DNA of 64,000 bases, from positions 18,586-82,585 of the IMG/VR virus record IMGVR_UViG_3300020718_000278; one strand, given 5' to 3'. The notes below the pieces were generated by a model that made no database searches, was not told the DNA's origin, and saw nothing but the letters and a program-made list of their open reading frames with translations. A program made the translations under genes and the position numbers. This document shows, in pieces, positions 32,930 to 62,097 of this stretch. The stretch comes from a virus (lineage: Duplodnaviria > Caudoviricetes). Within the stretch, counting starts at the first letter, position 1, and each line of letters opens with the position of its first letter.

Positions 32930-33244
32930 ATGGATACTGACAAATTAATTGCCCATAGTCGCAGTCGTTTTGACCATGCGGCAGCCAAGCGCACACTTAA
33001 AGAAAAATATCAAGGTAAATTGGTATTTGCTCACAACGGCGGAATGTTTAAAGCAGAGCCTAATCTTATTGTATTTTTAGAATCTTGTTGGGGACAAGGA
33101 CAGATAGACCCAGTAATAATTGACTTGTACGGGAATCCAGTAAAAGTTCATAGCACTAATTTATTAAACGAGGCTAGGAAAATTTATAAAGAACAAACAA
33201 CTGCTTGGTTGAAAGAATACGAAGACCTTAACAAAAACAGATGA
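32930..33244 (+). CDS. Hypothetical protein (104 aa)
   Basis: Clean ORF after a promoter, ATGA-coupled to the next gene. Confidence 0.7.
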   Translation: MDTDKLIAHSRSRFDHAAAKRTLKEKYQGKLVFAHNGGMFKAEPNLIVFLESCWGQGQIDPVIIDLYGNPVKVHSTNLLNEARKIYKEQTTAWLKEYEDLNKNR

Positions 33245-34041
33245 CAGCCGGTGTACTAATCTTTGCTTTTAATAATGAACATATAGATTATCTAGCCATG
33301 GCTAATTGGTCAGCAAAAAATATTCGCAGACATTTAAATTTGCCAGTAGCTGTAGTCACTAATACTACCATTCCTTCTAATTACTTTTTTGAACAATCTA
33401 TTATTGCTGAGCCCGAGGGCGAATATTTTAGAAAATTTGCTGACCAAGAAGAAAATGTAACATGGTATAATGGTAATCGTGTTGACGCATACAATTTATC
33501 CCCGTGGGCGCACACATTGTTATTAGACGCAGATTATGTGGTAGCTAGTAGTGAATTAAAAAAAATATTAGATATTAGAAAAAATTTTGTAGCACATAAA
33601 ACAGCTTATGATATAGTCGACCAAGATAACTTTGACGAGCTTAATAATTTTGGAAGTTTTAATATGCCAATGTGGTGGGCAACTGTAATAATGTTTAGGC
33701 GTTCAACCGAAGCACAAATGATTTTTGAATCAATGGCAATGATAAAAAATCATTGGAAACATTATAGGAATTTATATAAAATTTTAAACTCAACTTATCG
33801 TAATGATTTTGCGCTAAGTATAGCATTAGGTATTGTTAATGGGCATACACTTGATTATACAGAAATTCCATGGTCCTTGGCTTCATTGACTCCAGCGCAT
33901 AAATTAACGCAAATAGCAGAAGACCAATATCGTATAGATTTTTTAACACAGGATAATAAACCTCGATACATTACTATTAATCAAGATTTTCATGCTATGG
34001 GTAAAAAACATTTGGGAGATATCATTGCCAAATCAAGCTGA
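33241..34041 (+). CDS. Glycosyltransferase-like protein (GT-A fold, GT8-like)
   Basis: GVLIFAFNN..IDYLAMA; TLLLDADY (DxD); WWATVIMFR; RNDFALSIAL; H near the C-terminus. Confidence 0.65.
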   Translation: MTAGVLIFAFNNEHIDYLAMANWSAKNIRRHLNLPVAVVTNTTIPSNYFFEQSIIAEPEGEYFRKFADQEENVTWYNGNRVDAYNLSPWAHTLLLDADYVVASSELKKILDIRKNFVAHKTAYDIVDQDNFDELNNFGSFNMPMWWATVIMFRRSTEAQMIFESMAMIKNHWKHYRNLYKILNSTYRNDFALSIALGIVNGHTLDYTEIPWSLASLTPAHKLTQIAEDQYRIDFLTQDNKPRYITINQDFHAMGKKHLGDIIAKSS

Positions 34042-34756
34042 AAAAGGATATTTAATACCGGCGATAGGAGAGGTTTACGTTAAGTGCGCTAAACAATTAG
34101 CTAATAGCATATTACAATGGCATCCAAATGCTGATATAACTATTTTAACAGAAGACATGTTACCCTATGGAAAATTTACTGGATTTGCTAATGACTGGCA
34201 ATGCTATGAAGCAAGTCCGTATGAAAAAACTATAAAATTAGAAGCAGATATGTGGTGCGCCAGCCCAGTTGATCATTGGTGGGACTTGTTTTCTAATCGT
34301 GATGTGGTTATTAGCCAAGGATGTAGAAATTTTTATAATGAACCTGGTAAATCAAGAATATATCGTAAAATATTTGATAACAATAATTTACCAGATGTTT
34401 ATAATGGCATCACCTATTGGCAGGTAAGTAATACAGCCGAAGAATTTTTTAAATTAGTTCGTGATATTTTTGAAAATTGGGAAAAATATAAAACTTTGTT
34501 AAAATTTCCCGATGAAATACCTACAACTGATGTTGTATATGGAGTGGCAGCAGTTATTATGGAAGTTGAAAACGTGACTCTACCCGCGGGTATGGGACCA
34601 ACTATGGTACATATGAAGAAAAATATGATACCTATTACAACAGAAAAATGGACCAATGAGTTGATATTTGAACAGACAAATCCTGGTGTTAGAATTAACA
34701 CAGTAGCACAATGGGGATTAGTGCATTATCATGTGAAGGAAATAGAGAATGAGTAA
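34025..34756 (+). CDS. Glycosyltransferase-like protein (GT8-like paralogue)
   Basis: SPYEKTIKLEADM (ExD variant), LPDVYNGITYW, TTDVVYGVA, MVHMK; likely TTG start at 34025 after GGAG. Confidence 0.6.
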   Translation: MPNQAEKGYLIPAIGEVYVKCAKQLANSILQWHPNADITILTEDMLPYGKFTGFANDWQCYEASPYEKTIKLEADMWCASPVDHWWDLFSNRDVVISQGCRNFYNEPGKSRIYRKIFDNNNLPDVYNGITYWQVSNTAEEFFKLVRDIFENWEKYKTLLKFPDEIPTTDVVYGVAAVIMEVENVTLPAGMGPTMVHMKKNMIPITTEKWTNELIFEQTNPGVRINTVAQWGLVHYHVKEIENE

Positions 34757-34994
34757 AGACATAGATAAAATTAAACATAGCAAACGTTTGCATCATGATA
34801 ATACGGCTATTGCCAAACAAAAAGCTATAGCAAAAACTCATAATATTCCAACAGGGCCCGAGCATCGCCTAGCAAAAGTTCATGCTACTACCTGTGGTGA
34901 CTCTAATTGTGTTATGTGCGGAAATCCACGTAAATTTTTTAAAGAAAAAACAATACAAGAAAAACGAGCCGAGCAAAGAGCAAAAGATGAATGA
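34749..34994 (+). CDS. Small basic hypothetical protein with a Cys cluster
   Basis: H...CGDSNCVMCGNPRK putative Zn site. Confidence 0.6.
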   Translation: MSKDIDKIKHSKRLHHDNTAIAKQKAIAKTHNIPTGPEHRLAKVHATTCGDSNCVMCGNPRKFFKEKTIQEKRAEQRAKDE

Positions 34995-35304
34995 AAAAGA
35001 ATTTTGGGCGGCATTAAAACCCGTAGAATCTAAACCATTATTATATAGGTTGTATTACAATGACGCCGGTAACCCATTATATTTTAGCCAAGAAGATTTA
35101 CCAGGTAATTATATAGATGTTGATTATAAAACATACATCAACCCACCAAAGTATATACGTGTGGTGGATAAAAAATTAGTAATACTTGAGGATACCGCAG
35201 TAACAAAATTATATCCAGGAAAATCTGGAACTTGTTGCCATCCGCAAGATATCACTATAATAGTTGATGAGTCAACTCAACATATCAAATGGAGTTTAAA
35301 ATGA
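34987..35304 (+). CDS. Hypothetical protein (about 105 aa)
   Basis: Likely start ATG 34987 (MNEKEFW), overlapping the upstream stop; YRLYY...G.PL.FS.EDLPG.YI. Confidence 0.6.
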   Translation: MNEKEFWAALKPVESKPLLYRLYYNDAGNPLYFSQEDLPGNYIDVDYKTYINPPKYIRVVDKKLVILEDTAVTKLYPGKSGTCCHPQDITIIVDESTQHIKWSLK

Positions 35305-36230
35305 AAAGTATTGATGTAGCAGATTTAGATTGTATCTATTTATCATATGACGAACCACAAAAAGAAGAATTTTGGGTCAAAATTAAAAATATGGTACCTT
35401 GGGCCAAACGAGTTGATGGAGTAAAAGGTTCAGATGCCGCACATAAAGCTGCTGCCGCGGCCAGCGAAACAGAAAGATTTATTTTAATTGATGGTGATAA
35501 TTTACCTAACGATGAGTTTTTTGATTTAATAATTGAATTTCCCGACGACACTTATGAGCAAGCAGTTTATCGCTGGAGAGCTCGTAATCATATTAATGGA
35601 TTATTGTACGGTAACGGCGGCATAAGTTCTTGGACTAGGACATTTGTTAATAACATGAAAACTCATGAAAATACCGATGGACGAGCGGAAACTGAAGTAG
35701 AATTTTGTTTTGATCCACTATACTGGGCCATGAATGATTGTTATAGTGTAACCTACCCTAACGCATCTCCATTTCAAGCATGGCGAGCAGGATTTAGAGA
35801 AGGTGTGAAAATGTGTTTAGACCGCGGAATAAAACCAAACATAACGGAATTTAAAAATAAAGTACATCATCGCAATCTAGATAATTTAACCGTATGGCAT
35901 AATATAGGAAGAGATGTTGAAAATGGTATATGGGCAATATTGGGCGCTCGTATGGGTACTTATATGCTCATGATTACACCTTCGTGGGATTATCGAGAGG
36001 TACAAAATTTTGATTCGCTTAAAAGCATTTACAGTACAATAGATGGACATAATCCAGAAATTATTTCTGCTAAAATATCTGGAGAATTATCCAAACAATT
36101 AGATTTACCAATGGCTATGCTTGACGAAACTGCCAGCAAATTTTTTAAACATCACTATCGAAGCGAACAACGTAATAAAGGAATTATGATTCGTGAAATT
36201 GATGTCATTAGACAACAAGAGGGCTGGTAA
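35301..36230 (+). CDS. Glycosyltransferase-like protein (GT2-like), paralogue of the C-terminus of 59327-61147
   Basis: LDCIYLSYDEP...RVDGVKGSDAAHKAAA...FILIDGDN (DxD); start after GGAG with ATGA overlap. Confidence 0.6.
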   Translation: MKSIDVADLDCIYLSYDEPQKEEFWVKIKNMVPWAKRVDGVKGSDAAHKAAAAASETERFILIDGDNLPNDEFFDLIIEFPDDTYEQAVYRWRARNHINGLLYGNGGISSWTRTFVNNMKTHENTDGRAETEVEFCFDPLYWAMNDCYSVTYPNASPFQAWRAGFREGVKMCLDRGIKPNITEFKNKVHHRNLDNLTVWHNIGRDVENGIWAILGARMGTYMLMITPSWDYREVQNFDSLKSIYSTIDGHNPEIISAKISGELSKQLDLPMAMLDETASKFFKHHYRSEQRNKGIMIREIDVIRQQEGW

Positions 36231-36772
36231 TGTTTGATAAAGATTCATTTTCAAATGGACAAATTGACAGCAAACTATGGTTATGTCGCGAGTTAGAAGC
36301 ACTTAACTGGTCTAGCGACTATACCCATATATACGGCGGCTGGTATGGAATACTTGCTTTTTTATTGCTTAGTCGTGAGAAGTTTAAAGTAGGACGTATT
36401 GAAAGTTTTGATATAGATCCTCACTGTGAATCTATTGCGGACATGATTAATGAAAATTGGGTTATCAAAGAATGGAAATTTAAAGCCTTTACATTGGATT
36501 GTAATCAAAGCATACGGGGTAATCCTGACTTAATTATTAATACAAGCAGCGAACATTTTGAAAATATGGAATGGTTTAACAACATTAAATCAGGAACTCG
36601 TGTTATTATACAAGGTAATAATATGCCACACGATGATCATTATGTACATTCTTCTACTCTAAAGGATTTTATAACACATTATCCGTTAACTAATATTGTT
36701 TATCAAGGAGAATTAAAGTTTGTCTATCCAGAATGGAAATTTACTAGGTACATGATAATTGGAATCAAATAA
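36230..36772 (+). CDS. Class I SAM-dependent methyltransferase-like protein
   Basis: IYGGWYG glycine loop, ESFDID acidic motif, DLIINTSSEH. Confidence 0.65.
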   Translation: MFDKDSFSNGQIDSKLWLCRELEALNWSSDYTHIYGGWYGILAFLLLSREKFKVGRIESFDIDPHCESIADMINENWVIKEWKFKAFTLDCNQSIRGNPDLIINTSSEHFENMEWFNNIKSGTRVIIQGNNMPHDDHYVHSSTLKDFITHYPLTNIVYQGELKFVYPEWKFTRYMIIGIK

Positions 36773-37412
36773 AATACGCGGGTCTAATTCAACCCACGGT
36801 CAAGATCTTTGGGTTTTAGCTACTACTAATTTTCGAAAGAATGGGTACTATGTTGAAATGGGTGCTATAGACGGAGTTTTTCAAAGTAATACTTACATAC
36901 TTGAAAAAGACTACGGGTGGCAAGGCATATTAGTTGAGCCTGACAAACGTTTTTCTTCTGTACTAGAGAAAAATAGACCAAATAGTAAAATTGATTATAG
37001 TTGTGTTTGGTCAACTACTGGAAAAATTAAAACTTTTTATCAGTCAAATACAATGATTGACGCCAGAAGCACAATTGAAGAATTTGCTGAAGTAGGATCT
37101 GCTAATCGAACAAATTGGAATAAATATACAGTTAACACTATTAGTTTAATAGATTTGTTACATCGATATAATGCGCCAAATTATATCGATTATCTTAGTT
37201 TAGATGTTGAAGGTAGCGAATTAACAATACTTAAAGGATTTGATTTTAATCAATACGAATTTGGTTGTATCACTATTGAGCACAATCGTCGATCTGATTA
37301 TCGCGACGAAATTAAATTATTTTTGAATTCAAAAAATTATTATACACCGGCAAATTGTGAAAATTTGTTTTTGTGGGATGATTGTTATGTGTTAAATAAA
37401 GGATCCGTATGA
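36759..37412 (+). CDS. FkbM-family methyltransferase
   Basis: GQDLWV...GYYVEMGAIDG..QSNTY.LE...GW.GILVEP; IDYLSLDVEGSE..IL.G. Confidence 0.88.
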   Translation: MESNKIRGSNSTHGQDLWVLATTNFRKNGYYVEMGAIDGVFQSNTYILEKDYGWQGILVEPDKRFSSVLEKNRPNSKIDYSCVWSTTGKIKTFYQSNTMIDARSTIEEFAEVGSANRTNWNKYTVNTISLIDLLHRYNAPNYIDYLSLDVEGSELTILKGFDFNQYEFGCITIEHNRRSDYRDEIKLFLNSKNYYTPANCENLFLWDDCYVLNKGSV

Positions 37413-39602: not shown

Positions 39603-39603
39603 C

Positions 39604-40908
39604 ATGAATAAATCAAACACACTTTGTCCTATCCCGTGGACACACTTATCAATACAACAAAACGGAGACTTACGGGCTTGCTGCCAATGTATCTATGCTC
39701 CTTATGGACAACTATCAGATGAAACTGGAACACTTAACATAAAAGACGCTGATTTAGACATAGCAAGGAATCATTCTGTATTAAAAGATTTACGAAAAAG
39801 TATGATTAACGGAGAGAAACATCCGTTGTGTAATCTTTGTTGGAAAGAAGAAGAACACGGCTTGTTTAGTAAACGAAGTAATATGGTAAGAAGGTATGAC
39901 ACAAGCGAGTACGAAACTTTAACTTCGCCCGACGGAACAATTGACACTAATCAATTCCCTTTACGTTACATTGATATACGATTTGGTAACTTATGTAATT
40001 TAAAATGTAGATATTGCGGCCCGGCTGATAGCTCTTTATGGGCCGAAGATTATGCTATGATGGCTGATAGTGACGAGCCACGATTACCTTTTTATAAATC
40101 TAAAGAATATAAAATTAAACAAATTAATAATGTATGGAAAATTGATTCTACAGATTTCGAATGGTATGAAAATGAAAATTTTTGGAAACAGATTGACAAA
40201 TTAATTCCTTATATTGATAGATATTATTTTACTGGCGGTGAGCCAACGGTTAATAAAGCGCATTTTAAATTACTTGAGCATATAATTATGTCTGGTCATT
40301 CTCCTTATGTAACACTAGAATATAATTCTAACATAGTAGCTATTCCAAATAAATTATTTAATATGTGGGAAGCGTTTAAATCTGTAGAAATAGGTTGTAG
40401 TTTAGATGCTACTGGAGATTTAGCAAATTATTTACGTTATCCTAGCGAGTGGGATGTCTTGAAAGAAAATTTAATAAAAATTGATCAAGCAAAAGCTGAT
40501 ATTGTTGCGGCAGTAGCAACTACTATCAGTGTTTATAATATTAGAAACTTTTTAGAACTTACAGAATGGTTAATAACACAACCATTCAATAAAGTTAAAA
40601 TCATCCCATCTTACCATGTATTAGAAGGTCCAGCACACATGAGTGTTCAAGTATTGCCTTTAGAAGTTAAAAATCAAATAGTCCAAGAATATGAAGATTT
40701 TTACAAAAAAATAGCCAAAATAGACAAGTCTACAGCAATAATTCTGCGTAAAGTTTTTTCAGGGATAATTAACTATATGCTAGCAGAAGACAAATCACAT
40801 TTATTAACAAATCTTATGTATGCTACTGAAAAATTAGATAAAGTACGTAATCAAGATATAAAAAATTACCTACCTTGGCTTGCAGAAATAATAAATCAAA
40901 GGAAATAA
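39604..40908 (+). CDS. Radical SAM protein with N-terminal SPASM/twitch Fe-S domain
   Basis: LCPIPWTHL...NGDLRACC...LR..M..GE....C..CW..E; CNLKCRYC; YFTGGEPT. Confidence 0.9.
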   Translation: MNKSNTLCPIPWTHLSIQQNGDLRACCQCIYAPYGQLSDETGTLNIKDADLDIARNHSVLKDLRKSMINGEKHPLCNLCWKEEEHGLFSKRSNMVRRYDTSEYETLTSPDGTIDTNQFPLRYIDIRFGNLCNLKCRYCGPADSSLWAEDYAMMADSDEPRLPFYKSKEYKIKQINNVWKIDSTDFEWYENENFWKQIDKLIPYIDRYYFTGGEPTVNKAHFKLLEHIIMSGHSPYVTLEYNSNIVAIPNKLFNMWEAFKSVEIGCSLDATGDLANYLRYPSEWDVLKENLIKIDQAKADIVAAVATTISVYNIRNFLELTEWLITQPFNKVKIIPSYHVLEGPAHMSVQVLPLEVKNQIVQEYEDFYKKIAKIDKSTAIILRKVFSGIINYMLAEDKSHLLTNLMYATEKLDKVRNQDIKNYLPWLAEIINQRK

Positions 40909-40909
40909 A

Positions 40910-42242: not shown

Positions 42243-42243
42243 A

Positions 42244-46055: not shown

Positions 46056-46060
46056 AGCTT

Positions 46061-47576: not shown

Positions 47577-47605
47577 TTGACAAATACAGCTTGATCTGTT
47601 ATAAT
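47577..47605 (+). promoter_or_regulatory. Consensus sigma70 promoter with extended -10
   Basis: TTGACA-17 bp-TATAAT with TGn immediately before the -10. Confidence 0.88.
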
Positions 47606-50928: not shown

Positions 50929-50940
50929 AAAATATCTCCG

Positions 50941-53574: not shown

Positions 53575-53880
53575 TTACGATATAGTTTCGTTAAGAGTAG
53601 AAGTAATGCCATTGGCTTTATTGTATGCTACTCTAGCTACTTGCTCTGGTAGTTTAGCACGGGCTGACATCCAATTAGCATAATTTTCTACAGTATCAAA
53701 AATGATTGCTGCCTGTCTAGTATCTGAAGTAGGATTTGTTGTTGTTTGACTAATAAATCCTGGTTGTGATTTAGTAAATGCGTTGATTGCATCGGTTAAT
53801 GCTTTATTAGCATCAGAACTTTGAGGGAAAAACTGAACCCCGCTAGGTTTAGTAGAATTAATTGTTAAAGTAACCGCCAT
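53575..53880 (-). CDS. 101-aa late protein, possible ABM-like barrel or small virion protein
   Basis: Strong AGGAG SD, own TAAATA; QPGFIS...AIIFDTVENYANW resembles the ABM motif. Confidence 0.55.
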   Translation of the reverse strand: MAVTLTINSTKPSGVQFFPQSSDANKALTDAINAFTKSQPGFISQTTTNPTSDTRQAAIIFDTVENYANWMSARAKLPEQVARVAYNKANGITSTLNETIS

Positions 53881-53903: not shown

Positions 53904-53909
53904 TATTTA
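53904..53909 (-). promoter_or_regulatory. Late promoter core TAAATA
   Basis: acTAAATA in the gap upstream of the SD of the 101-aa gene. Confidence 0.6.
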
Positions 53910-53917
53910 GTGTAAAT

Positions 53918-54991
53918 CTAACTTAATTTGAATAGTTTTTCAGCATTACGAAAAGCTATATTTTCTATATCTTGTTGAGAAAGCCCGGAAGCGTATAAAT
54001 CGCTAGTATCTTTCCACTTGTTTAATCCGCTAGGGTCGTGGTGTGGATAATCTGTACTAAACAGTAATCGTTTTGGACCAACATATTCCATTAAAACATT
54101 AAAACTAGGCTTCATTTCTATGTCAATAGTAAAATATATATTTTCTTTGATATAACTAAAAGGATGATTTTTACATTTATATAGACTTGGATCACGAGTA
54201 TAAGACTCTGCTATATTCTTCAAAATTTTGCCTATCATTAGTTGGGCGCCTTCTGTTAGTATTATTTGAAGTTTTGGATGTCGGTCGAATATATTGTCAG
54301 ATAATAAATCATAAACGCCCATCTCTAATCGACCTACAGGTTTATTATTTGCAATAAGTTTAATGCGTTCTGGTAAAGAATATGCTATATCGTGCTGCAT
54401 TGAAAAATGCGTGAATATAACAATATCATTCTTTTCACACATATCGTAAAATTCCTCCATACGGTCGATGACTGACCACGGGACATCTCCTTTTGTAGTA
54501 GGATCGTACACAGTATAATGTAAGTATGCTACTTTAAAATTATTATCAATAGCCCACTGTAATTCTAACAATGCCATATCCATATCTTGAAATGGCAGTA
54601 ATGCGACCCCAAAGAATCTGTCTGGATATTGATCTACGATATTTTTAACTACTATATTATAGCTATGGGCCATGGCAGCTCCAAGATTTTTTTCGGTTGA
54701 ATAGTTAAACCTCATAGCTCGCTCCTGCGGAGCAAGCAATTGCATATCAACTTTCATCTTTGCTAAATCTTTAAATCTTTCGACTATGTTAGTAAGCCCG
54801 TATAAATCGCAATGAAGTGTATCTGGTTTGCTGTCGGTTTTGTTTATAATTGGATCTTTAGCATATTGTATATCAAACAATCTACCATCTTTATCAAAAA
54901 ATAGCTTAGGCAAATCTTGTTTAAGGTTGTCTGGCACAAAGTCAAATATTTCTGGGGGAATAATATGACTGTCACAATCGATTATTTTCAT
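53918..54991 (-). CDS. Amidohydrolase_2-family metal-dependent hydrolase/decarboxylase
   Basis: IIDCDSH, RFFGVALLP.QD...A..EL, FTH, HP.LQIILTEG, RLLFSTDYPH. Confidence 0.88.
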   Translation of the reverse strand: MKIIDCDSHIIPPEIFDFVPDNLKQDLPKLFFDKDGRLFDIQYAKDPIINKTDSKPDTLHCDLYGLTNIVERFKDLAKMKVDMQLLAPQERAMRFNYSTEKNLGAAMAHSYNIVVKNIVDQYPDRFFGVALLPFQDMDMALLELQWAIDNNFKVAYLHYTVYDPTTKGDVPWSVIDRMEEFYDMCEKNDIVIFTHFSMQHDIAYSLPERIKLIANNKPVGRLEMGVYDLLSDNIFDRHPKLQIILTEGAQLMIGKILKNIAESYTRDPSLYKCKNHPFSYIKENIYFTIDIEMKPSFNVLMEYVGPKRLLFSTDYPHHDPSGLNKWKDTSDLYASGLSQQDIENIAFRNAEKLFKLS

Positions 54992-54995
54992 ATAA

Positions 54996-55874
54996 TTATT
55001 TAGCTACCCATTTTTTATAAGTAGGGACTATTACTCGTTCTACGTAATCAGACTTTCGATTCATATCAACATTGTATCCTTGATTTTTAAAATATTCGTA
55101 ACGGTTAGCTTTTACAAATCCAACAGTTAGAGCGTCTGATAAATTGCGAAAATCTGTAGTATCGCGATTAACTGCCATGCTAAAAAAGTTAACTAAATTT
55201 GCTGTAGGAGCATATTTGTGTAAACTAGGCACATCGTCTATAGAGTCAGCTTGTGCAACTCCTAAAATACGAACCGCTTGTTCTTTTTGTTTAAAGAATC
55301 CATACGCATCTGATTGCATATCAACATGACCACCTAACAATGCTGTATAAGCTTCAGAACTTCCTTTAAATCTTATTGCTTGTATATCGTGATGACTATA
55401 TTTTTTTATTTCTTCAACTAACATATTATGAGATTCACCGGCAACAGCAATATTAATTCGCTGTCTTGGTATGGTCTTGTCAAACAACGCACTCAATGAT
55501 TTAAATTTACTTTTAGAACTAACACCTATTGCTAGCGGGCTGGACAATACTGGTCCAACGAATCTTAATTTATCAATAAAATTATTTTCAGGATTGACTA
55601 TAGCTTCAAATAGTATTTGCCCGCCTGAAATTCCCAAAGCTATTTTAGCAGAAGGTGGTTGAGCAAAAAAACTTTTTAAGGCAATGACACCATTTGCTCC
55701 TGGTTTATTTTCTACTATAAATTTAAAATCAGTATTAGCTTCGGCATCGGCAGTAAGAATTCTAATAATAGTATCGGTTCCGCCCGGACCGTAGCCTACG
55801 GTAACAGTTACTTCGTTAGGAGCAGCTAAAACGGATGTAGTTAAAAATAGTAATGCTAAAAGTATTTTTTTCAT
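54996..55874 (-). CDS. Bug/TctC-family tripartite tricarboxylate transporter substrate-binding protein
   Basis: Signal peptide MKKILLALLFLTTSVLA; VGYGPGGTD...IVENKPGANG; FKGSSEAYTALLGGHVD. Confidence 0.85.
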   Translation of the reverse strand: MKKILLALLFLTTSVLAAPNEVTVTVGYGPGGTDTIIRILTADAEANTDFKFIVENKPGANGVIALKSFFAQPPSAKIALGISGGQILFEAIVNPENNFIDKLRFVGPVLSSPLAIGVSSKSKFKSLSALFDKTIPRQRINIAVAGESHNMLVEEIKKYSHHDIQAIRFKGSSEAYTALLGGHVDMQSDAYGFFKQKEQAVRILGVAQADSIDDVPSLHKYAPTANLVNFFSMAVNRDTTDFRNLSDALTVGFVKANRYEYFKNQGYNVDMNRKSDYVERVIVPTYKKWVAK

Positions 55875-55906
55875 ACTATTACTTATTTTGTTGCTTGAGT
55901 TGCCAT

Positions 55907-55932
55907 AAAAAAGCCCTCATTATGAGGGCTTT
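55907..55932 (-). terminator. Intrinsic terminator after dctP
   Basis: Minus strand AAAGCCCTCA-TAA-TGAGGGC-TTTTTT. Confidence 0.85.
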
Positions 55933-55952
55933 GATGTTATTACTAATGTTGT

Positions 55953-56909
55953 TTAAGCATTTTTGATACGATTAACCAAATTATCGGAAAAGTATGTAGT
56001 ATACTTGTCGTAGATTGGAGTCATCATAGATTTGAATTTAGCAACTTCTGCATCGTCCCACTTAATAACATTAACACCGTTGGCACGGCACTCTGCTTCA
56101 ACACGAACAGCATCTTCGACACTTTCGACACGCTCAATCTTAGCACTAGCTACCCCAGCGGCTTTCATAGCGGCTTGTTGTTCTTCTGTTAATGTATTCC
56201 AAAACTCGCGATTAACAATAATACTAGTACAAGAAATATTGTGCTCCATATCATTGATGAATGGTAATGCTTTGTCGTTGTTTAATGGATAGTAACGTGT
56301 GTAAGTACACTCGCCAGCTTCTACTTCACCGGACAATGTGCGTTCTGTTAATTCTTCAACTGGGAAGAATGTAGTTTCAGCACCTAACGCATCAAATGTG
56401 TCTTTGATAACTGGTCCACTACTAACACGGAACTTAACACCTTTAAAATCTTCTACACTAGCAATAGCTTTAGTAGCAGGAATAGTTCTATAACCACCGC
56501 TGTATGTAAATGCCAATGCCTTAATCTTTTCGCCACCTTCGGACTCTAATTTGCCTAAAAGTTCAGCACCAATTTCGCCATCAAACACACGAGCTGCATG
56601 GTCATGGTCTTTAAACAAGAATGGCATATCGATAACATTCAATGTGCGGGAATAACGATCCGCTAACCATGTTGTGTATAATTGACTTACTTGAATCTTG
56701 CCAGCTTCCATTAAATCTAATACATCTTTTTTGCCGACTGGAACGCCATTGTTGTACTTTTCACTGTATTCAGTGTCAGTAAGTACTTCAATTTCAATTT
56801 GTCCTGGTACACGCTCTTCCAAAGCATCTTTGAAAAATTTAGCAGCACGGATGAACAAATATGCTGGATCGTGGGCAATAACCCAGGTAATTTTTTTAGT
56901 TTGACTCAT
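55953..56909 (-). CDS. dctP: TRAP transporter substrate-binding protein DctP-like, no signal peptide
   Basis: DMPFLFKDHDHA, YSGGYR, EDFKGVKFRV, F.ALGA...P..E; start at 56909 after AAGGAGA. Confidence 0.88.
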   Translation of the reverse strand: MSQTKKITWVIAHDPAYLFIRAAKFFKDALEERVPGQIEIEVLTDTEYSEKYNNGVPVGKKDVLDLMEAGKIQVSQLYTTWLADRYSRTLNVIDMPFLFKDHDHAARVFDGEIGAELLGKLESEGGEKIKALAFTYSGGYRTIPATKAIASVEDFKGVKFRVSSGPVIKDTFDALGAETTFFPVEELTERTLSGEVEAGECTYTRYYPLNNDKALPFINDMEHNISCTSIIVNREFWNTLTEEQQAAMKAAGVASAKIERVESVEDAVRVEAECRANGVNVIKWDDAEVAKFKSMMTPIYDKYTTYFSDNLVNRIKNA

Positions 56910-56935
56910 TTTATCTCCTTTAGATAATACAGTAT

Positions 56936-56941
56936 TATTTA
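56936..56941 (-). promoter_or_regulatory. Late promoter core TAAATA upstream of dctP
   Basis: gcTAAATA in the gap upstream of the SD. Confidence 0.55.
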
Positions 56942-56963
56942 GCCTTTGCAAATAATTATATCC

Positions 56964-58145
56964 CTAAATTTGGGATGGTTTTATGTACAATTCTTTAAAT
57001 TTTTCTAAACTACCTATAACATAGGAGTTACGATAGTTTATAAAACCATTTTTATTACCCTTAGGAAACAGATATTTGGGGTTTATGGACTTGTAAAAAT
57101 TTTCAAAATCGCTAATTACTAATTGATTTATTCTAGTATCTTTGTGCAAATCGTGAAACCAATTATCATGATCCGCCATGAAGAAGTCCTTAGATTTTTT
57201 AGCTTGGAACACCTTAGTCATATCTAAATCTGGGTATATAATAGGAACAATAGCCCGTTGGTAGGAGCTGTTTTCGTATTGTGCCTTAACTTCTGGCGGA
57301 CTATCGTGATTAAACATAAGACCTTTTATGTATTCATATCTTGGTTGCAAATGAATAGCTTTAATAATTTCGTGAGATTGTTTTATTAATATTTCAGGCA
57401 TAGTAGGAGTTGAATAAAACAATACAATGTCCGCATTATCATAGAAATCTTCAAATGGTTGCCTTGGTACATTTACTCCCACATCATAAATTGTACTTAT
57501 AAAGTGACCCTTGATAAGTTGTACTTGAGGTTTTTCTGATCCATATATGATAGCAATTTTTTTACCTTGATCCGCTAGAGCCTTGAGGTGTTTTAGCTTA
57601 TCAAGTCTATACCTGGCGGCCGTAGTTGGGTGTACAAAATCAGAAGATTTCATGATCCACTCGTCCGTTTTAAACTCTAACATATTTTCAAAAAAGTCAT
57701 TAATTGAAATTTTTATCTCGGGATGATTTTGCGAAACTGTTTGTAACGCTGGCATTGTAGTAAGTAACCATTCGCTTGCGTTATTAGCAGAATTTGTATC
57801 TAGGCTTGCTTTGAAATCACGCAAACCTGATAAAGGAATACCTGCTACAATTTCATCTATCTTAATGTTATTGTTTAAAAAAGAATACAGTACATTTGTA
57901 CTATCTGCCCCGCCGCTGAACATAATTACTACATAATCGTATTCATCTCTAATCTGTTGAGCTCTAATTTTAAAAAGTTCGCGCAAAGATAATGTAGGTT
58001 CGATGCGCCAATCGACTTTTCTAAATTTATCTTGATGAAAATCCCAACTAATATCAGCACTTGTATGATTAGCTTCCAAGATAGCTTCTATCTTGTCAAA
58101 GAATATTTTTTCATTTACTTTATAGGATCCTAAATAGTCTTTCAT
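56964..58145 (-). CDS. PP-loop protein, long subfamily A
   Basis: LGSYKVN...WDFHQD...LRELFKIRAQQIRDEYDY...FSGGADSTN; YGSEKP. Confidence 0.78.
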   Translation of the reverse strand: MKDYLGSYKVNEKIFFDKIEAILEANHTSADISWDFHQDKFRKVDWRIEPTLSLRELFKIRAQQIRDEYDYVVIMFSGGADSTNVLYSFLNNNIKIDEIVAGIPLSGLRDFKASLDTNSANNASEWLLTTMPALQTVSQNHPEIKISINDFFENMLEFKTDEWIMKSSDFVHPTTAARYRLDKLKHLKALADQGKKIAIIYGSEKPQVQLIKGHFISTIYDVGVNVPRQPFEDFYDNADIVLFYSTPTMPEILIKQSHEIIKAIHLQPRYEYIKGLMFNHDSPPEVKAQYENSSYQRAIVPIIYPDLDMTKVFQAKKSKDFFMADHDNWFHDLHKDTRINQLVISDFENFYKSINPKYLFPKGNKNGFINYRNSYVIGSLEKFKELYIKPSQI

Positions 58146-59320
58146 GTAGTGAACTCCATAAATTTTGTATAATGTCCTATGTTATATCTTTGTCGAAATG
58201 TTATAAAGCTATTTTTGTTTAAACCAAGATACTTTGGGTGTATGTTTTTATAAAATAGTTTGAAATCACTTTCGACCATCTGATGTATGTGTGTTCCTTT
58301 GTGTAGGATATTAAACCAATCGTGTTGAGGCGACAAAAATGATATAGCTGATTTTTGACATTGAAATACATTATCATATGTTGTAGGATATATAGCTGGC
58401 ACAATGCTTCTTTGGTAATCACCTTTGACAGTACCTGCTTCTTGAATTCGGTCTTCATGCCATAATTTAACACCGCCCATTTGCTTAACTAAATCAGTTA
58501 ACCATAAGTTTTCTTTTTTATGAATGAACTTTGCTACAGCGTGGCTTTGTTTTACTAACATTTCTGGCAGTTCAGGTCCCCAGTAAAATATTACTCGACT
58601 AACATTAGGATAATCCTTATCAAAAGGTTGAACTGCGTTATTAACACCTAAATCTGTAATAAGTGTACATAGACTACCATCGTTGTTATATCTTATTATA
58701 GGTTTATCGATACCCCATACTATAGCAATGCGTTTTCCTTGTTCTGCTAAATCTTTAAGATGTTTAAATTTATTTAGATCTCCTTTAGCATTAATTACAG
58801 GATTGACCCAGTCTAAACATTCATATAACCATTTATCTGTTTGATATTTGGTAATATCTTCAAAGTAATCATTAATAGTAATTTTTATATTTGGAAAACT
58901 AGTTGCAATTTCGTTTAGCAACGGAAATAGCGCATATTTTGTTTCGCTAATAGTGTTACTAACTGAAGTATCTTTATCGTTCCAGTTCCAGTTATTCAAC
59001 CCTGACATTGGGGCAGAACCAATAATTTCATCTATATGTATGTTATTATTTAGAAAAGTTTTTACAACATTAGTACTATCGGCACCACCACTACACATGA
59101 TGATAACATAATCATAATCATTTCGAATTTGTTGAGCTCTGATTTTGTAAAGAGCATCCAATGAAAGTGAAGGTTCCTCCTGCCAATTAATACGATTGAA
59201 TGTATCGCAATGAAAGTCCCAAGTGACATCTGATAAGTTTGTTTGCGCCTCTAGTATTGCTTGAATTTTATTGGTAAATTTTTTACCATTAGCACTATAA
59301 TATCCTAGGTCAGCTGTCAT
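58142..59320 (-). CDS. PP-loop protein, long subfamily A
   Basis: LGYYSANG...WDFHCD...LDALYKIRAQQIRNDYDY...CSGGADSTN; WGIDKP. Confidence 0.78.
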   Translation of the reverse strand: MTADLGYYSANGKKFTNKIQAILEAQTNLSDVTWDFHCDTFNRINWQEEPSLSLDALYKIRAQQIRNDYDYVIIMCSGGADSTNVVKTFLNNNIHIDEIIGSAPMSGLNNWNWNDKDTSVSNTISETKYALFPLLNEIATSFPNIKITINDYFEDITKYQTDKWLYECLDWVNPVINAKGDLNKFKHLKDLAEQGKRIAIVWGIDKPIIRYNNDGSLCTLITDLGVNNAVQPFDKDYPNVSRVIFYWGPELPEMLVKQSHAVAKFIHKKENLWLTDLVKQMGGVKLWHEDRIQEAGTVKGDYQRSIVPAIYPTTYDNVFQCQKSAISFLSPQHDWFNILHKGTHIHQMVESDFKLFYKNIHPKYLGLNKNSFITFRQRYNIGHYTKFMEFTT

Positions 59321-59326
59321 GTCTGG

Positions 59327-61147
59327 TTAATCTAATAAAACAATATTTAGCGCATGGTCTGTTAGCAACAAATTAAACTGCTCTTGCAACCATTCGGTAT
59401 TGTTTATATTAGCCAACACTTCTGTGTTATCAGTATTATCCTGCCCAAACTTTTTACCAGCTAGAGCTCCTTTAATTGCCCAATCTCCAAACGGTTTATC
59501 ATTGCCTACAGAACACCATATCTCTAAACGCTTTTTGCTTTCTCGGTTTAGTTGTCGTTTTAATATGCCGCTAGCTAGTTTAGCGCATTCTCTAAATGCA
59601 CTCCTGAATGTGTTAAATGCGTCTGTGTTAAATTCGGTAGTGTTACTTACTTGTGACATAACTTTAAATTTACTACTAATACTAGTAGTCATATCTGTAC
59701 TCGATGGATCAACAGATAGCGTTAACTCTTTAGGTAATAATTTTACACCACCATATCCATATTCTAATCCATTTACTGGATTTTGACTACGCCATACATG
59801 AACGCAATCTCTATCAAATATTCCAGGTTGATAGTCAAAGCTCCAATCATCATTTAAATAAGCATCTCCGTCTACTACATAAAACATATCAGCGGCAACT
59901 AATTCGGCAGCACATTTATGGGCATTAACTATTCCCTTAACTCCGTTTACACGAAATGCTTTTGGCGATTTTTCTAAAACTCTTTGCCAGTTTTCTTCTG
60001 CGTTAGGTTCGTTGTAACTTATAAACACTACATCTAATGGGGGTAAATTAACTTTAATATTACCAACAATCTTAGTACCTTTTGGTTTAGCGGGCGAAAT
60101 TTTGGCTGCCCACACATCTTTAACTTCGTTACTTAACTTGCTATCAATCATCCATACATGCTCGTACTCTAACTCGTAATACGGTATATTTTCTAATATT
60201 GTATATTCTAAATTAGGCAATTCTGGGTTATATACTATCTTTGGTGACACATACCCCATATCTTTTAATGGCTTTTTGTCTCCACCTCTTAGTTTAACCT
60301 TGGCTACCCATACCTTATCTCCGTTTGGCCTAAATTTAGGATCTAAGTACCACACACATTCGTATTTGAAATCTTCATAAGTTATATTAAAATTTTTGTC
60401 ATATTCTATGTCAGGAATGTCAGGATTACGAATAACTCTAGTATGAACATCGGGAGTAACATATCCCATGTCTTTTAATAATTTAGTACCACCTCCTCTT
60501 GTTTTAACTTTAACGGCCCATACTTTGTCACTGTTCGGAGTAAACTTATTATCTAAATACCACACACATTCGTATTTGAAATCATGCCACGCAATATTAA
60601 AGTCTATAGGATATTTTAACTCGGGAAGGTCGGGATTATATATTATACGCATATGAACATCTGGAGTAATATGACCCATATCCTTTTCTCCCACCGGTTC
60701 ACTGTTTTGTAGGCGGCATTTCATAATCCAAATTTTATCTCCATTTGAGAATTTAGGATCTATGTACCATATCATTTCATATCTTAAATCATATAAATCA
60801 TTAATATCTGGTGTATTAAATTTAATATTAATATCGACATCGGGATTATATTCCCACTCAAGCTCAAGGTCAACTTCAAAATATTTCTGTTCAATAATCC
60901 AGTTTTTTGTAAAATGTTTGGCGATCCAGATTCCATTGTATTTCCAAACAATACATCGATCAGATTTTATAAATGGCAATGATTTTATGTTTTTATAAAA
61001 TTGAAACCCTTCAAAATCAGGATTGGCTATTATAAATTCATCGTATCCTTGCCCTAAATTATACAACTCTAGGTCAAATGCTTTGGCATCGCCTTTCCAT
61101 TCAATTGTTTTTATTTTTTTAATAGGAACATAATATGCGTCAATCAT
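59327..61147 (-). CDS. Repeat-containing glycosyltransferase-like protein (GT2-like C-terminus)
   Basis: C-terminal LDVVFISYNEP...RVNGVKGIVNAHK.AA...FYVVDGDA...YGYGGVKL; N-terminal 70-aa repeats. Confidence 0.65.
   Translation of the reverse strand: MIDAYYVPIKKIKTIEWKGDAKAFDLELYNLGQGYDEFIIANPDFEGFQFYKNIKSLPFIKSDRCIVWKYNGIWIAKHFTKNWIIEQKYFEVDLELEWEYNPDVDINIKFNTPDINDLYDLRYEMIWYIDPKFSNGDKIWIMKCRLQNSEPVGEKDMGHITPDVHMRIIYNPDLPELKYPIDFNIAWHDFKYECVWYLDNKFTPNSDKVWAVKVKTRGGGTKLLKDMGYVTPDVHTRVIRNPDIPDIEYDKNFNITYEDFKYECVWYLDPKFRPNGDKVWVAKVKLRGGDKKPLKDMGYVSPKIVYNPELPNLEYTILENIPYYELEYEHVWMIDSKLSNEVKDVWAAKISPAKPKGTKIVGNIKVNLPPLDVVFISYNEPNAEENWQRVLEKSPKAFRVNGVKGIVNAHKCAAELVAADMFYVVDGDAYLNDDWSFDYQPGIFDRDCVHVWRSQNPVNGLEYGYGGVKLLPKELTLSVDPSSTDMTTSISSKFKVMSQVSNTTEFNTDAFNTFRSAFRECAKLASGILKRQLNRESKKRLEIWCSVGNDKPFGDWAIKGALAGKKFGQDNTDNTEVLANINNTEWLQEQFNLLLTDHALNIVLLD
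60095..60856 (-). repeat. About four tandem 70-aa (210-bp) intragenic repeats
   Basis: TACCACACACATTCGTATTTGAAATC at 60348 and 60558 (210 bp apart); protein unit YNPD+P...FKYECVWYLD.KF....DKVW..K+K.......KDMGY++P. Confidence 0.85.
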
Positions 61148-62097
61148 ATATCTTTAATCCAGTTATAATATTCTTTTAAACCTTTGGTTAAATCAATAGT
61201 GGGGTAATATCCAAAATCTGATTTCGCTCGCATAATATTTAACTGACCTCGAATAGGAAAGTTAAAATCTCGCTTATCAACACGCACTGATCCTTTGCCA
61301 ACTATGTCGACAACTAGATTGGCAGCTTCTAAAAGTGTATAAGATTTACCGCGAGCTATGTTGTAAGTAGTGTTTGATGTATTGTCACTTATAGCGGCTA
61401 AAGCTATCCCCATGGCAGCGTCATCGATATAAGTAAAATCTAAAGAATCGTTAACACCATTAACAGTTAATATATCATCACGCATAGCGGCAGTTAAAAA
61501 TTTACTAATTACTCTATCTTCAACGTCGTGTGGACCATAAACAGCACTAGGTCGAATAATAGTATAATCTAAATCATATTGTCTATTATAATCTTGAACT
61601 AACATTTCTCCGGCAAATTTTAATATGCCGTATTGACCAAAAGGCTTACAATCAGAACTTTCGTCAATGCCATCGCACAAATCTTGTTTGTTAAAATTTC
61701 CATAAACCATGCTAGAACTAACATACACAAACTTTTTAACATTATGTTTTACGCTAAGTTCTAATAAGTTAAGTAATCCTTCGATCATTACTCTACTTCC
61801 TGCAGCAGGATTTTTATTTACAATTTTTTGTCTGGGAAAACTAGCAAGATGTATAACAACATCAACTCCCTCAAATATACTATCGTCAAAAGGTTTTTCA
61901 ATACTAGCAATACAAATATCGCGAGTTTTTATTCTACATAAACGTTCAAGCATTATATAATCTAATTCTGCTTTGGGAATAATATCGTAGTCAGTTTTAT
62001 TATCAATAATAGCACATTCATGCCGAAAACTTTCAAGTACACGAACTACATTGTGGCCTATAAAGCCCAGCCCACCAGTTACTAAGATTTTTGCCAT
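61144..62097 (-). CDS. NAD-dependent epimerase/dehydratase (extended SDR, NDP-sugar modifying)
   Basis: VTGGLGFIG, HLAS, YVSSSMVYG, YGILK (YxxxK), IIRPSAVYGP, DFTYIDD. Confidence 0.92.
   Translation of the reverse strand: MAKILVTGGLGFIGHNVVRVLESFRHECAIIDNKTDYDIIPKAELDYIMLERLCRIKTRDICIASIEKPFDDSIFEGVDVVIHLASFPRQKIVNKNPAAGSRVMIEGLLNLLELSVKHNVKKFVYVSSSMVYGNFNKQDLCDGIDESSDCKPFGQYGILKFAGEMLVQDYNRQYDLDYTIIRPSAVYGPHDVEDRVISKFLTAAMRDDILTVNGVNDSLDFTYIDDAAMGIALAAISDNTSNTTYNIARGKSYTLLEAANLVVDIVGKGSVRVDKRDFNFPIRGQLNIMRAKSDFGYYPTIDLTKGLKEYYNWIKDI

Follow-up and report, generated by a model that had tools for sequence, protein, structure and literature searches.

Directly behind the tail-fibre genes of an uncultured giant water phage lies an enzyme island of about 29 kb (32930-62097 of the window, that is, of the whole 64,000-nucleotide stretch that was analysed), which is built around seven asparagine-synthetase-like PP-loop ATP enzymes seen in virus sequence only. 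The island is genuine, not a random collection of host-gene captures. We read it, tentatively and with a little less than an even chance of being right, as a conserved, modular, virus-specific tailoring island whose core would be ATP-dependent carboxylate activation followed by amide formation. A search of the literature found no paper describing it.

Its features are listed in Table 1. Pfam and NCBIfam profile searches left nine island genes without a family, and about 23-25 of the 34 genes have family support; the statement of the first-pass annotation that nearly every gene encodes a group-transfer, redox or transport protein was therefore too strong. Most of the enzymes that it counted were nevertheless recovered, namely seven PP-loop enzymes, three radical SAM enzymes (CxxxCxxC in all, one being a full-length N-terminal twitch type), a desaturase, two GNATs, an NDP-sugar epimerase, an amidohydrolase and three transport components (a TctC with a signal peptide, a DctP-like protein without one and a 450-aa membrane protein with a weak SSS match). 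As had also been claimed, family searches of 32930-62097 found no replication or nucleotide-metabolism family. Three of the four proposed oxygenases stand (TauD, the AspH protein at 43119-43727 and Rieske), but the second AspH-like protein (40910-41671) itself gave no match and is kept as a candidate. Similarly, the FkbM methyltransferase holds, but the second methyltransferase (36230-36772), which matches no family or PDB entry, is putative. The four glycosyltransferase-like proteins found no confirmation. Two of them share a domain with a GT-A-like motif: it carries G..A..DGD (consensus DIVFISYNEPNA...VVDGDA), a PF00535 search gave no match, and hhalign against real GT2 proteins aligned the motif alone (P 0.015). 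To the other two (33241-34041 and 33992-34756) no family could be assigned; the latter matches phrog_1903 (function unknown).

Table 1. Features of the island and its promoters, in window coordinates
Feature	Coordinates	Strand	Remarks
Terminator hairpin of fibre operon, overlapping sigma-70-type promoter of first island operon	32877..32923	+	TTTACT-17-TATAAT
Five conserved genes of unknown family (104, 266, 254, 81, 140 aa)	32930..35304	+	48-80% identity in G003, G005; no Pfam or NCBIfam match
313-aa protein, GT-A-like motif	35289..36230	+	Domain also at C-terminus of 59327-61147 (blastp 9e-26)
180-aa protein, putative Rossmann methyltransferase	36230..36772	+	Adjoins twitch radical SAM in 7 loci
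FkbM-family methyltransferase	36759..37412	+	PF05050 57 bits; TIGR01444 39.6 bits
Two radical SAM enzymes, 319 and 413 aa	37409..39602	+	PF04055 47 and 46 bits; CNFSCSYC, CNYDCSYC; paralogues (8e-19)
Radical SAM, N-terminal twitch/SPASM domain	39604..40908	+	NF033640 358 bits, full length
253-aa protein, candidate cupin/AspH-like oxygenase	40910..41671	+	Relative's 253-aa protein, same gene order, has weak PF05118 mark
Acyl module, six translationally coupled genes	41658..46055	-	Start/stop overlaps
194-aa unknown	41658-42242	-	Last gene of acyl module
TauD oxygenase	42244-43122	-	72 bits
AspH oxygenase	43119-43727	-	24 bits, above cut-off
GNAT-fold protein, 199 aa	43724-44323	-	Part of acyl module
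PP-loop enzyme, 305 aa	44320-45237	-	SGGxDS; part of acyl module
Delta-9-type desaturase	45237-46055	-	FA desaturase 59 bits; SCD1 (4ymk) 4.5e-13; three His boxes
PP-loop enzyme, 308 aa, coupled to 193-aa GNAT	46082..47573 (pair)	+	SGGxDS
Perfect sigma-70 consensus promoter	47577..47605	+	TTGACA-17-TATAAT with TG; sole 12/12 match in 64 kb
PP-loop enzyme, 295 aa, coupled to 295-aa Rieske [2Fe-2S] protein	47618..49379 (pair)	+	SGGxDS; Rieske 35 bits
DUF2061 membrane protein	49376..49789	-	PF09834 65 bits
Seventh PP-loop enzyme, 395-aa family	49789..50928	-	YSGGSDS upstream of called ATG
PP-loop enzyme, 395-aa AsnB-like family, 401 aa	50941..52146	-	SGGADS at residue 77
Polytopic membrane protein, 450 aa, weakly SSS-symporter-like	52146..53498	-	TIGR00813 29 bits over full length; 12 hydrophobic segments
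Conserved 101-aa protein	53575..53880	-	Own CTAAATA core and strong Shine-Dalgarno site
Carboxylate module (Amidohydro_2, TctC, DctP-like)	53918..56951	-	Amidohydro_2 53918-54991; TctC 54996-55874
Two tandem PP-loop enzymes, 395-aa AsnB-like family	56964..59320	-	SGGxDS
Sugar module	59327..62097	-	606-aa protein coupled to epimerase
606-aa protein, GT-A-like C-terminal domain	59327-61147	-	Domain common to 35289-36230
NDP-sugar epimerase/dehydratase	61144-62097	-	137 bits

The island occupies the same slot in two close relatives, G003 and G005 (baseplate gp6 81-83% identical), where it measures 27.3 and 15.6 kb and is bordered by the same fibre genes on one side and the same genes on its right flank. 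Slot and core also recur in L007, L008 and a 248-kb contig, and the epimerase and the 606-aa protein are both found in G003, G005, L007 and L008. Modules of the island recur in 81 further viral loci. Among the PARTNERSHIPS in these loci, the 395-aa PP-loop family (PP395) adjoins TctC 32 times and a PurD-like ATP-grasp protein in 12 loci, and the 305-aa family (PP305) adjoins Rieske in 14 loci, the desaturase 10 times, the 199-aa GNAT in 8 of 8 cases and the 193-aa GNAT in 5 loci. The partner of the epimerase is the 606-aa protein in all eight adjacencies counted, and homologues of the twitch radical SAM enzyme occur in 18 of the 81 loci. Within modules, the genes are coupled by start/stop overlaps. 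All neighbours of the signature families in the Atlas and BFVD are viral, and 185,579 species genomes gave just two matches, both on phage-like MAG contigs; as far as tested, the families are virus-restricted. No match to PP395 or PP305 was found in any cultured phage. A lack of co-conservation in relatives had been named as what would speak against the island; instead, co-conservation in G003 and G005 and the partnerships recurring in 81 loci support the view that it is a coherent, co-conserved phage system.

All seven PP-loop enzymes carry the SGGxDS motif, six of them inside the called frame. In the seventh, no stop interrupts the frame after the TAA of the upstream paralogue, GGAG stands 7 nt before ATT 50928, and the N-terminus read from this ATT matches the PP395 consensus, so translation probably starts there. 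The 401-aa enzyme is 40-43% identical to its paralogues, and each paralogue adjoins its own partner gene. The full fold of PP395 is AsnB-like and not QueC- or TilS-like; Pfam Asn_synthase does not match PP395 and gives 14 bits, below cut-off, for PP305. A glutaminase domain is absent, and the best 150 family members listed are all about 150-450 aa, lengths at which none is possible. Fold and motif suggest that these enzymes are stand-alone relatives of the AsnB synthetase half that would activate carboxylates and form amides, and because the glutaminase half is missing, free ammonia or an amine co-substrate would have to supply the nitrogen. Nucleobases are the substrates of many PP-loop enzymes (QueC, TilS, MnmA, GuaA), which speaks for nucleic-acid hypermodification, with the PP-loop enzymes working on DNA or tRNA bases and the GNAT, radical SAM and oxygenase proteins completing the base. 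Weak QueC, NadE and TtuA matches to the PP305 core, together with ThyX and RtcB near the island in relatives, point the same way. However, these matches cover the generic ATP-binding core only, the PP395 fold is of the other kind, searches found neither a transglycosylase nor a DNA- or RNA-binding domain nor a base-flipping family, and the idea has no place for a membrane desaturase, an exported TctC or an NDP-sugar enzyme; we consider hypermodification very improbable.

In the tailoring reading that we prefer, the PARTNERSHIPS of the island would be (a) acyl, (b) sugar, (c) carboxylate and (d) radical SAM plus methyltransferase. Module (a) would use a membrane desaturase of the delta-9 type with a PP-loop enzyme and an N-acyltransferase of the GNAT family, and then AspH and TauD oxygenases; module (b) the NDP-sugar epimerase/dehydratase, the 606-aa protein with its GT-A-like motif and two PP-loop enzymes; and module (c) exported TctC together with a DctP-like protein that stays in the cytoplasm, an amidohydrolase of the decarboxylase type and a permease, with further PP-loop enzymes adjoining. 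The pathway would adenylate carboxylates, form amides, N-acylate and oxidise a sugar-acid or fatty-acyl substrate. Most likely, its product would be an amide-linked, N-acylated, oxidised conjugate on a sugar-acid or fatty-acyl scaffold, made in the infected cell and bound for the cell envelope or virion surface. Each chemical step is deduced from fold or family, and the chemistry named earlier (amidation, acylation, hydroxylation, methylation and perhaps glycosylation) is reasonable. The desaturase frequently occurs in duplicate (68 copies in 36 loci), which, with its coupling to PP-loop and GNAT genes, suggests that it tailors a specific acyl group and does not serve bulk membrane fluidity. 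The relative L004, in which an ACP gene is added in front of the acyl module, favours the tailoring reading; the lack of an ACP, TctA and TctB in the window counts against it, as do the nine genes without a family and the putative standing of the glycosyltransferases.

In the carboxylate module, the true start of the DctP-like gene is at about 56909. By eye, a hydrophobic, signal-peptide-like N-terminal leader is present in all 40 distinct phage TctC sequences listed, the window's included, and a signal peptide is lacking in all 13 distinct phage DctP-like sequences listed, so the DctP-like protein is probably cytoplasmic. A different explanation, possible though rather unlikely, is that an acid is captured and converted to a free diffusible small molecule (nutrient, signal, chelator or toxin), with no surface decoration. 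Host TctAB would receive an organic acid from exported TctC, or the permease would take it up; the DctP-like protein would hold it, PP-loop and ATP-grasp ligases would amidate it, and oxygenases, GNATs and radical SAM enzymes would tailor it. The PP395-TctC adjacency, seen in 32 of the 81 loci, is indeed the strongest single association, DctP-like proteins without a signal peptide occur in 18 loci, the PurD-like ATP-grasp ligase is coupled to PP395, one relative has an AdoMet decarboxylase, and the Pfam family of the amidohydrolase takes in acid decarboxylases. Nevertheless, the window encodes no TctA or TctB, and the TctC/DctP module is dispensable here, being missing from G005, where the sugar and acyl modules are retained.

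Identities between the window and G003 are mosaic: 95-98% for desaturase, PP305, the acyl-module GNAT and AspH, 98% for Amidohydro_2, 94% for the DctP-like protein, 74% for TauD, 54% for the 194-aa gene and 39-63% for Rieske, PP395 and TctC (the last 60%). The FkbM methyltransferase is missing from both G003 and G005, and G005 also lacks Amidohydro_2 along with TctC and the DctP-like gene. Judged by motifs, expression is mixed, with two operons of host-type sigma-70 and three genes with late-like cores. The first operon (32930-41671) begins at its TTTACT-17-TATAAT promoter, kept in three phages, and TTGACA-17-TATAAT precedes the operon of the 295-aa PP-loop enzyme and Rieske. Of the TAAATA late cores and late action proposed earlier, what stands is CTAAATA about 29 nt upstream of three island genes only (the 101-aa gene, DctP and one PP395); the strict core ATAAATA precedes no island gene. 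Given the mosaic inheritance and the loss of a module from G005, the modules may serve separate ends instead of one pathway, and the mixed promoter types argue against a single co-regulated unit. The slot behind the fibre genes could thus be a hyperplastic region gathering independent auxiliary genes, such as a desaturase for membrane fluidity, uptake proteins and various oxygenases, whose clustering would reflect insertion tolerance and not common function. This would also suit the distant relative G004, where about 110 kb separate PP395 from the baseplate gene, versus about 43 kb in the window, and the stand-alone delta-9 desaturases of cyanophages (PMC5776448). We nonetheless think it improbable: coupling within modules is tight, specific gene pairs recur over 81 diverse loci, and the signature families occur in viruses only and have multiplied into paralogues, which is unexpected for captured host genes.

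The position of the island bears on a further possibility. As first described, it directly follows a terminator, a hairpin at 32877-32897 that ends the operon of a fibre-tip protein with 32% Ser/Thr; the hairpin (with compensatory changes) and TAGTATAATAA are kept in the window, G003 and G005, and the flanks diverge. The earlier suggestion of a decoration of virion proteins has this position beside the fibre genes as its sole basis. The enzymes might hydroxylate, amidate, acylate or cross-link a phage protein directly, or make a RiPP, with the fibre tip or the 101-aa protein as target. The island lies behind the fibre-tip gene in three relatives, an analogous enzyme block adjoins the tail-fibre genes of the cultured pelagiphage Mosig, and the late-like promoter and Shine-Dalgarno site of the 101-aa gene are kept in three phages. 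RiPP pathways, moreover, contain AsnB-like cyclases, AspH and SPASM/twitch radical SAM enzymes. Against this, family searches of the island found no leader-type precursor, RRE or protease for the RiPP-like product once proposed; the 101-aa protein is free of Cys, and its pattern of conservation suggests a folded domain; the terminator and sigma-70 promoter separate the first operon from the fibre operon; and protein substrates are a poor match for a membrane desaturase and for acid binders that are exported or imported. Modification of a protein is, in our judgement, decidedly improbable.

Several known systems resemble parts of the island. Polysaccharide and nonulosonic-acid clusters carry PP-loop amidotransferases, of the WbuX/PseA type acting on N-acetyl sugars and of the WbpS type forming uronamides, and they share with the island an NDP-sugar epimerase/dehydratase, a possible glycosyltransferase (putative in the island), a PP-loop amidotransferase, a GNAT, an FkbM methyltransferase and radical SAM. 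Unlike them, the island lacks HisH/HisF-type partners, a flippase, a polymerase and lipid-carrier enzymes, and its TIGR03573 (WbuX) score is 13.8 bits against a cut-off of 203. In Pelagibacter phage Mosig EXVC030M (MT647606, genes 72-92), the block likewise adjoins tail-fibre and S74 chaperone genes and is annotated with an FA desaturase, two Asp_Arg_Hydrox, TauD, an N-acetyltransferase, three MoaA-like radical SAM, methyltransferases and a sugar aminotransferase, but the desaturase alone is detectably homologous (28% identity); the Mosig genome announcement does not mention the enzyme-block genes. Stand-alone AMGs for delta-9 lipid desaturases are known from cyanophages (Roitman et al., PMC5776448). 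The island desaturase is also a phage-encoded, delta-9-type membrane enzyme with three His boxes, but its gene is translationally coupled to those of a PP-loop enzyme and a GNAT, to which relatives add an ACP. TctC and the DctP-like protein clearly belong to the TTT (TctC/Bug) and TRAP solute-binding proteins (PF03401 40 bits, PF03480 155 bits), yet are orphaned, with no TctAB or DctQM. Finally, compared with the C-terminal synthetase domain of asparagine synthetase B, the phage enzymes stand alone: the N-terminal Ntn glutaminase is gone, and only a remnant of about 50 residues aligns. AsnB relatives such as beta-lactam synthetase, carbapenam synthetase and TsnB9 keep a dead or repurposed glutaminase, whereas the phage enzymes have no such domain, occur as multiple paralogues per genome and are seen in phage sequence only.

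This accessory biosynthetic island is real and conserved, and represents an undescribed variant of such phage islands. It occupies the same slot in two close relatives, G003 and G005, between the orthologues of the fibre genes and those of the genes on its right, with lengths of 29.2 kb (window), 27.3 kb (G003), and 15.6 kb (G005). The three phages share the seven-gene left block, two radical SAM enzymes, a desaturase-PP305-GNAT199 unit, GNAT193, the 101-aa protein, at least one PP395 gene, the 606-aa protein, and an epimerase (PP395 and PP305 are PP-loop enzyme subfamilies of about 395 and 300 aa; the two GNATs are named by their lengths in aa). The genes for FkbM, the twitch radical SAM enzyme, TauD, the 253-aa and 194-aa proteins, a 308-aa PP-loop protein, Rieske, DUF2061, the permease, Amidohydro_2, TctC, and DctP vary among them. 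Identity to G003 is 95-98% for the desaturase, PP305, and Amidohydro_2, and 39-63% for Rieske, PP395, and TctC; these mosaic identities indicate module exchange among the relatives.

The same partners recur in a wider set of 77 IMG/VR loci and four metagenome loci that carry the 395-aa family. After de novo ORF clustering, with the window included where it is a member, the following were found within 10 kb of PP395: TctC (38 loci), 305-aa PP-loop proteins (37), desaturase (36), twitch radical SAM and DctP-like proteins (18 each), GNAT (17), Rieske (16), cupin, a 507-aa radical SAM enzyme, and a third PP-loop type (13 each), and a PurD-like ATP-grasp protein (12). The genes are coupled into modules, with specific direct adjacencies: PP395-TctC (32 times), PP305-Rieske (14), PP395-PurD (12), desaturase-PP305 (10), GNAT199-PP305 (8), and epimerase-606-aa protein (8). 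In one distant relative, an acyl carrier protein precedes PP305-GNAT-desaturase. The variable gene set might suggest unrelated AMGs gathered in a plastic slot, but this is unlikely. The first-pass annotation had made its proposal of one system depend on co-conservation in relatives, and co-conservation was found, with the island in the slot of both close relatives and its modules in 81 loci.

The IMG/VR contig is 82.6 kb long, with a completeness rating of 16%, and the window is its final 64 kb. In jumbo myoviruses of the Rak2/GAP32/BF type, the counterparts of the gp6-like wedge protein share about 34% identity with it, and the gp6 proteins of two close relatives (125-133 kb, rated 36-39% complete) are 81-83% identical to it. 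Because of these completeness ratings and the likeness of gp6 to that of jumbo myoviruses, we regard the phage as a jumbo myovirus of roughly 350 kb. A megablast search of cultured phages gave no DNA-level match to the island or the structural region. By analogy with Rak2-like jumbo phages, the single 5,067-aa ORF presumably encodes a fibre or whisker protein of giant size. The GIY-YIG-like ORF that follows it has no counterpart in G003 and G005, although its neighbours have one, and is probably a mobile homing endonuclease.

Features of the island and its surroundings (positions in the window)
Feature	Position	Strand	Remark
gp55-type late sigma factor and SbcD-like nuclease			upstream of island
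Baseplate hub and wedge genes			upstream of island
ATAAATA about 25-27 nt before structural genes (examples)	2266-2273; 10309-10315; 30654-30661
5,067-aa ORF	13767-28970	+	between baseplate wedge gene and fibre genes
GIY-YIG-like ORF	29116-29850	+	between giant protein and fibre genes
Tail-fibre genes			upstream of island; one with intramolecular-chaperone (Peptidase_G2) domain
Fibre genes, left flank of slot	30681-32846		orthologues in G003 and G005
Terminator hairpin	32877-32897		after fibre-tip gene (31893-32846)
Island	32930-62097
Seven-gene left block	32930-36772		shared with G003 and G005
Queries of PDB sequence searches	33992-34756; 36230-36772; 40910-41671		nothing useful
81-aa and 140-aa ORFs	34749-35304	+	overlap by 113 nt; 140-aa start probably internal Met near 34987
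Frame opening of seventh PP-loop paralogue	50926-50943	-	directly after TAA of preceding paralogue
101-aa protein	53575-53880
DctP-like gene	55953-56951	-	start probably 56909 (MSQTKK...), not the listed TTG
606-aa protein	59327-61147
Right flank of slot	62082-63747		orthologues in G003 and G005

The most characteristic members of the island are its PP-loop proteins, all seven of which carry the SGGxDS/T phosphate-binding loop of the superfamily, where the first strand of a Rossmann-like domain ends. Six are called ORFs with SGGxDS, and they split into the ~300-aa and ~395-aa subfamilies. In the seventh, the loop lies upstream of the called ATG, and no ATG, GTG, or TTG precedes it in the frame; an ATT two codons past the stop (TAA) of the paralogue before it, preceded at 7 nt by GGAG, matches the family N-terminus. 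This arrangement suggests rare ATT initiation or coupled re-initiation.

The 395-aa family is large, comprising 1,619 representative clusters at 50% identity in an exhaustive HMMER search (699 with E up to 1e-30). More than 366 metagenomic homologues were collected, none with a Pfam domain; their source names are "hypothetical" except in one jgi row ("cellulose biosynthesis protein BcsQ"), and a cluster look-up of the NCBI-sourced homologues returned no informative names. So far, the PP-loop families are also restricted to viruses. The nearest PP-loop neighbours in the ESM Atlas and BFVD are all viral, and a scan of 185,579 species genomes gave only two MAG contigs, both full of phage genes; neither PP395 nor PP305 matched cultured phages in tblastn. 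The two contigs are short, belong to MAGs labelled Methylococcaceae and Polynucleobacter, and share their phage genes with IMG/VR loci. A bacterial origin of these homologues was rejected, the contigs being phage fragments, and either they are phage DNA binned wrongly or they hint at freshwater hosts.

A HMMER profile of the 395-aa family reached no solved structure among PDB sequences, and only structure comparison was informative. A confident AlphaFold model built on 25 sequences (pLDDT 92, pTM 0.91) matches the cores of NadE, GMP synthetase, TilS, LarE, and TtuA; Foldseek against the PDB returned generic PP-loop cores only, with TM <0.3. The 305-aa family is a shorter relative with the same fold, and its profile matches NadE at 1e-7 and TtuA at 2.5e-5. 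Beyond the generic core, structure comparison recovered the synthetase-domain fold of asparagine synthetase B (AsnB), and among the readings considered, modification of nucleic acids is the least probable, and very unlikely. The model aligns to AsnB from residue 141 onward. An Ntn glutaminase domain with Cys at position 2 was not found in these proteins, which have 380-401 aa and an N-terminus of the form M..LG.Y without Cys, and the best 150 family members are all about 150-450 aa long, too short for such a domain. The Asn_synthase family PF00733 (cut-off 21 bits) was not reached, the best scores being 14.4 and 11 bits for two 305-aa-type genes; the 395-aa genes did not match it at all. Assignment to the WbuX-type N-acetyl sugar amidotransferases (TIGR03573) was rejected at 13.8 bits against a cut-off of 203, with only the N-terminal 50 residues aligned.

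Around these enzymes, Pfam and NCBIfam confirmed an FkbM methyltransferase, TauD, one AspH, Rieske, DUF2061, Amidohydro_2, TctC, DctP, three radical SAM enzymes (one full-length with an N-terminal twitch), a fatty-acid desaturase, and an NDP-sugar epimerase/dehydratase; the island GNATs have the GNAT acyltransferase fold. The desaturase (PF00487, 59 bits against a cut-off of 29.7) matches SCD1 (4ymk) at 4.5e-13 and has three His boxes (HRYVSH, HRGSHH, and HNNHH) and two hydrophobic segments in a crude 19-residue screen; its sequence predicts an enzyme of the SCD1 delta-9 type. A viperin-like NCBIfam membership of two radical SAM enzymes was rejected, as the match (60 bits, cut-off 180) is confined to the generic CxxxCxxC core, and the ScoE match of TauD (28 bits against 400) was taken as noise. 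The 450-aa protein, in which 12 hydrophobic segments are seen, matches SSS weakly. The TctC protein of the island has a signal peptide, as has every phage TctC seen, and every phage DctP-like protein seen is without one; normal DctP proteins are periplasmic and carry a signal peptide. TctA and TctB were absent from the window and from the frequent neighbours, and the set does not amount to a TTT transporter.

The first-pass annotation had read nearly every gene as one for a group-transfer, redox, or transport protein. This is overstated, as nine island genes belong to no family, but the density of tailoring enzymes is real. The second methyltransferase and second AspH that it listed could not be confirmed. 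Of its four GT-like proteins, two do have a domain in common, and it contains a GT-A-like DGD motif; no HMM or profile match was significant, with no PF00535 match, no GT in a PDB profile search, and only the G..A..DGD region aligned to seven real GT2 proteins by hhalign (P 0.015). A search with this domain gave a match only in Ralstonia phage RsoM2USA, where all neighbours are hypothetical. PDB sequence searches with GT-like and GNAT-like profiles gave nothing useful. The enzymes could also be read as modifying proteins directly or making a RiPP, which we consider distinctly unlikely: no RiPP or lasso precursor peptide, leader protease, or RRE was seen among the island ORFs with Pfam, NCBIfam, and PHROG, small ORFs being covered less than exhaustively. 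A Cys-rich motif, CGDSNCVMCG, marks the 81-aa protein, which is found in 10 loci.

As at the structural genes of this phage, a T4-type late gene should have TATAAATA or an ATAAATA core about 25-27 nt before its start codon. TATAAATA occurs twice in the window (15.7 expected), immediately upstream of structural genes in both cases, and ATAAATA occurs 11 times against 53.8 expected (about five-fold depleted), six times before structural genes and in none of the 11 cases directly before an island gene. Such purging elsewhere and retention before structural genes is as expected for a gp55-type late promoter. CTAAATA (13 observed, 23.9 expected) stands about 29 nt before three island genes, namely the 101-aa gene, where it is kept with the SD in three phages, the DctP-like gene at its likely start, and one PP395 gene. 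The pairing of the terminator hairpin is kept by compensatory substitutions in the window, G003, and G005, and a conserved TTTACT-17-TATAAT promoter at the island start overlaps it. The sole perfect TTGACA-17-TATAAT in the window precedes a 295-aa PP-loop gene and Rieske, and the late-sigma gene has its own promoter similar to these sigma-70-type ones. From this mix of sigma-70-type promoters and CTAAATA, the island is probably expressed in a mixed rather than purely late manner. The proposed system stands, but it is not clearly late-acting; the earlier observation was largely right and its interpretation partly so.

How might these enzymes work together? The PP-loop enzymes, AsnB-like without a glutaminase, would adenylate carboxylates and form amides with ammonia or amines, and the GNATs would N-acylate amines. 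The desaturase and the AspH/TauD enzymes may tailor the acyl chain or head group, and the epimerase and 606-aa protein may supply or transfer a sugar. TctC, the DctP-like protein, the permease, and the decarboxylase-type amidohydrolase could import or process an organic acid. With the last group in mind, the product could be a free small molecule made from a captured acid, which is somewhat unlikely. Our tentative preference, held at a little under an even chance, is a modular pathway to an amide-linked, acylated, oxidised sugar-acid or acyl conjugate for the envelope or virion. A bolder and doubtful speculation is that aquatic T4-like/jumbo phages possess a hitherto overlooked, virus-only enzymology (paralogous glutaminase-less AsnB-like ligases with GNATs, desaturase, oxygenases, and hijacked acid-binding proteins) that makes a lipidated, amidated sugar-acid conjugate and places it on their own receptor-binding fibre tip or the host envelope. 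If so, the conjugate would add a layer, chemically encoded, to the control of host range or superinfection, and an arms race would explain the module shuffling seen in close relatives.

The usual reading of phage accessory genes is as single metabolic helpers taken from the host. Unlike these, the island is a multi-enzyme block whose key families are so far found in viruses only and are expanded to as many as seven paralogues per genome, and it is widespread in uncultured aquatic phages, as the clusters of one family alone attest. It offers a large new set of putative stand-alone carboxylate-amine ligases. If a defined product is built, phages would have a biosynthetic chemistry of their own, devoted to amide-linked acyl or sugar-acid conjugates, with possible effects on host range, envelope biology, or chemical ecology. 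In the literature searched, no description of a PP-loop/TctC/desaturase/GNAT island was found; single AMGs for delta-9 desaturases have been described in phages (PMC5776448). An analogous arrangement is found in the cultured SAR11 phage Pelagibacter phage Mosig EXVC030M, in which about 20 tailoring-type genes adjoin the tail-fibre genes (54.7-69.2 kb of the record), a block that its genome note does not discuss. As annotated, this block includes a desaturase, two AspH, TauD, a GNAT, three radical SAM enzymes, methyltransferases, and a sugar aminotransferase, but only its desaturase is homologous to that of the island. The Mosig block is a possible bench model, and could make parts of the question testable.
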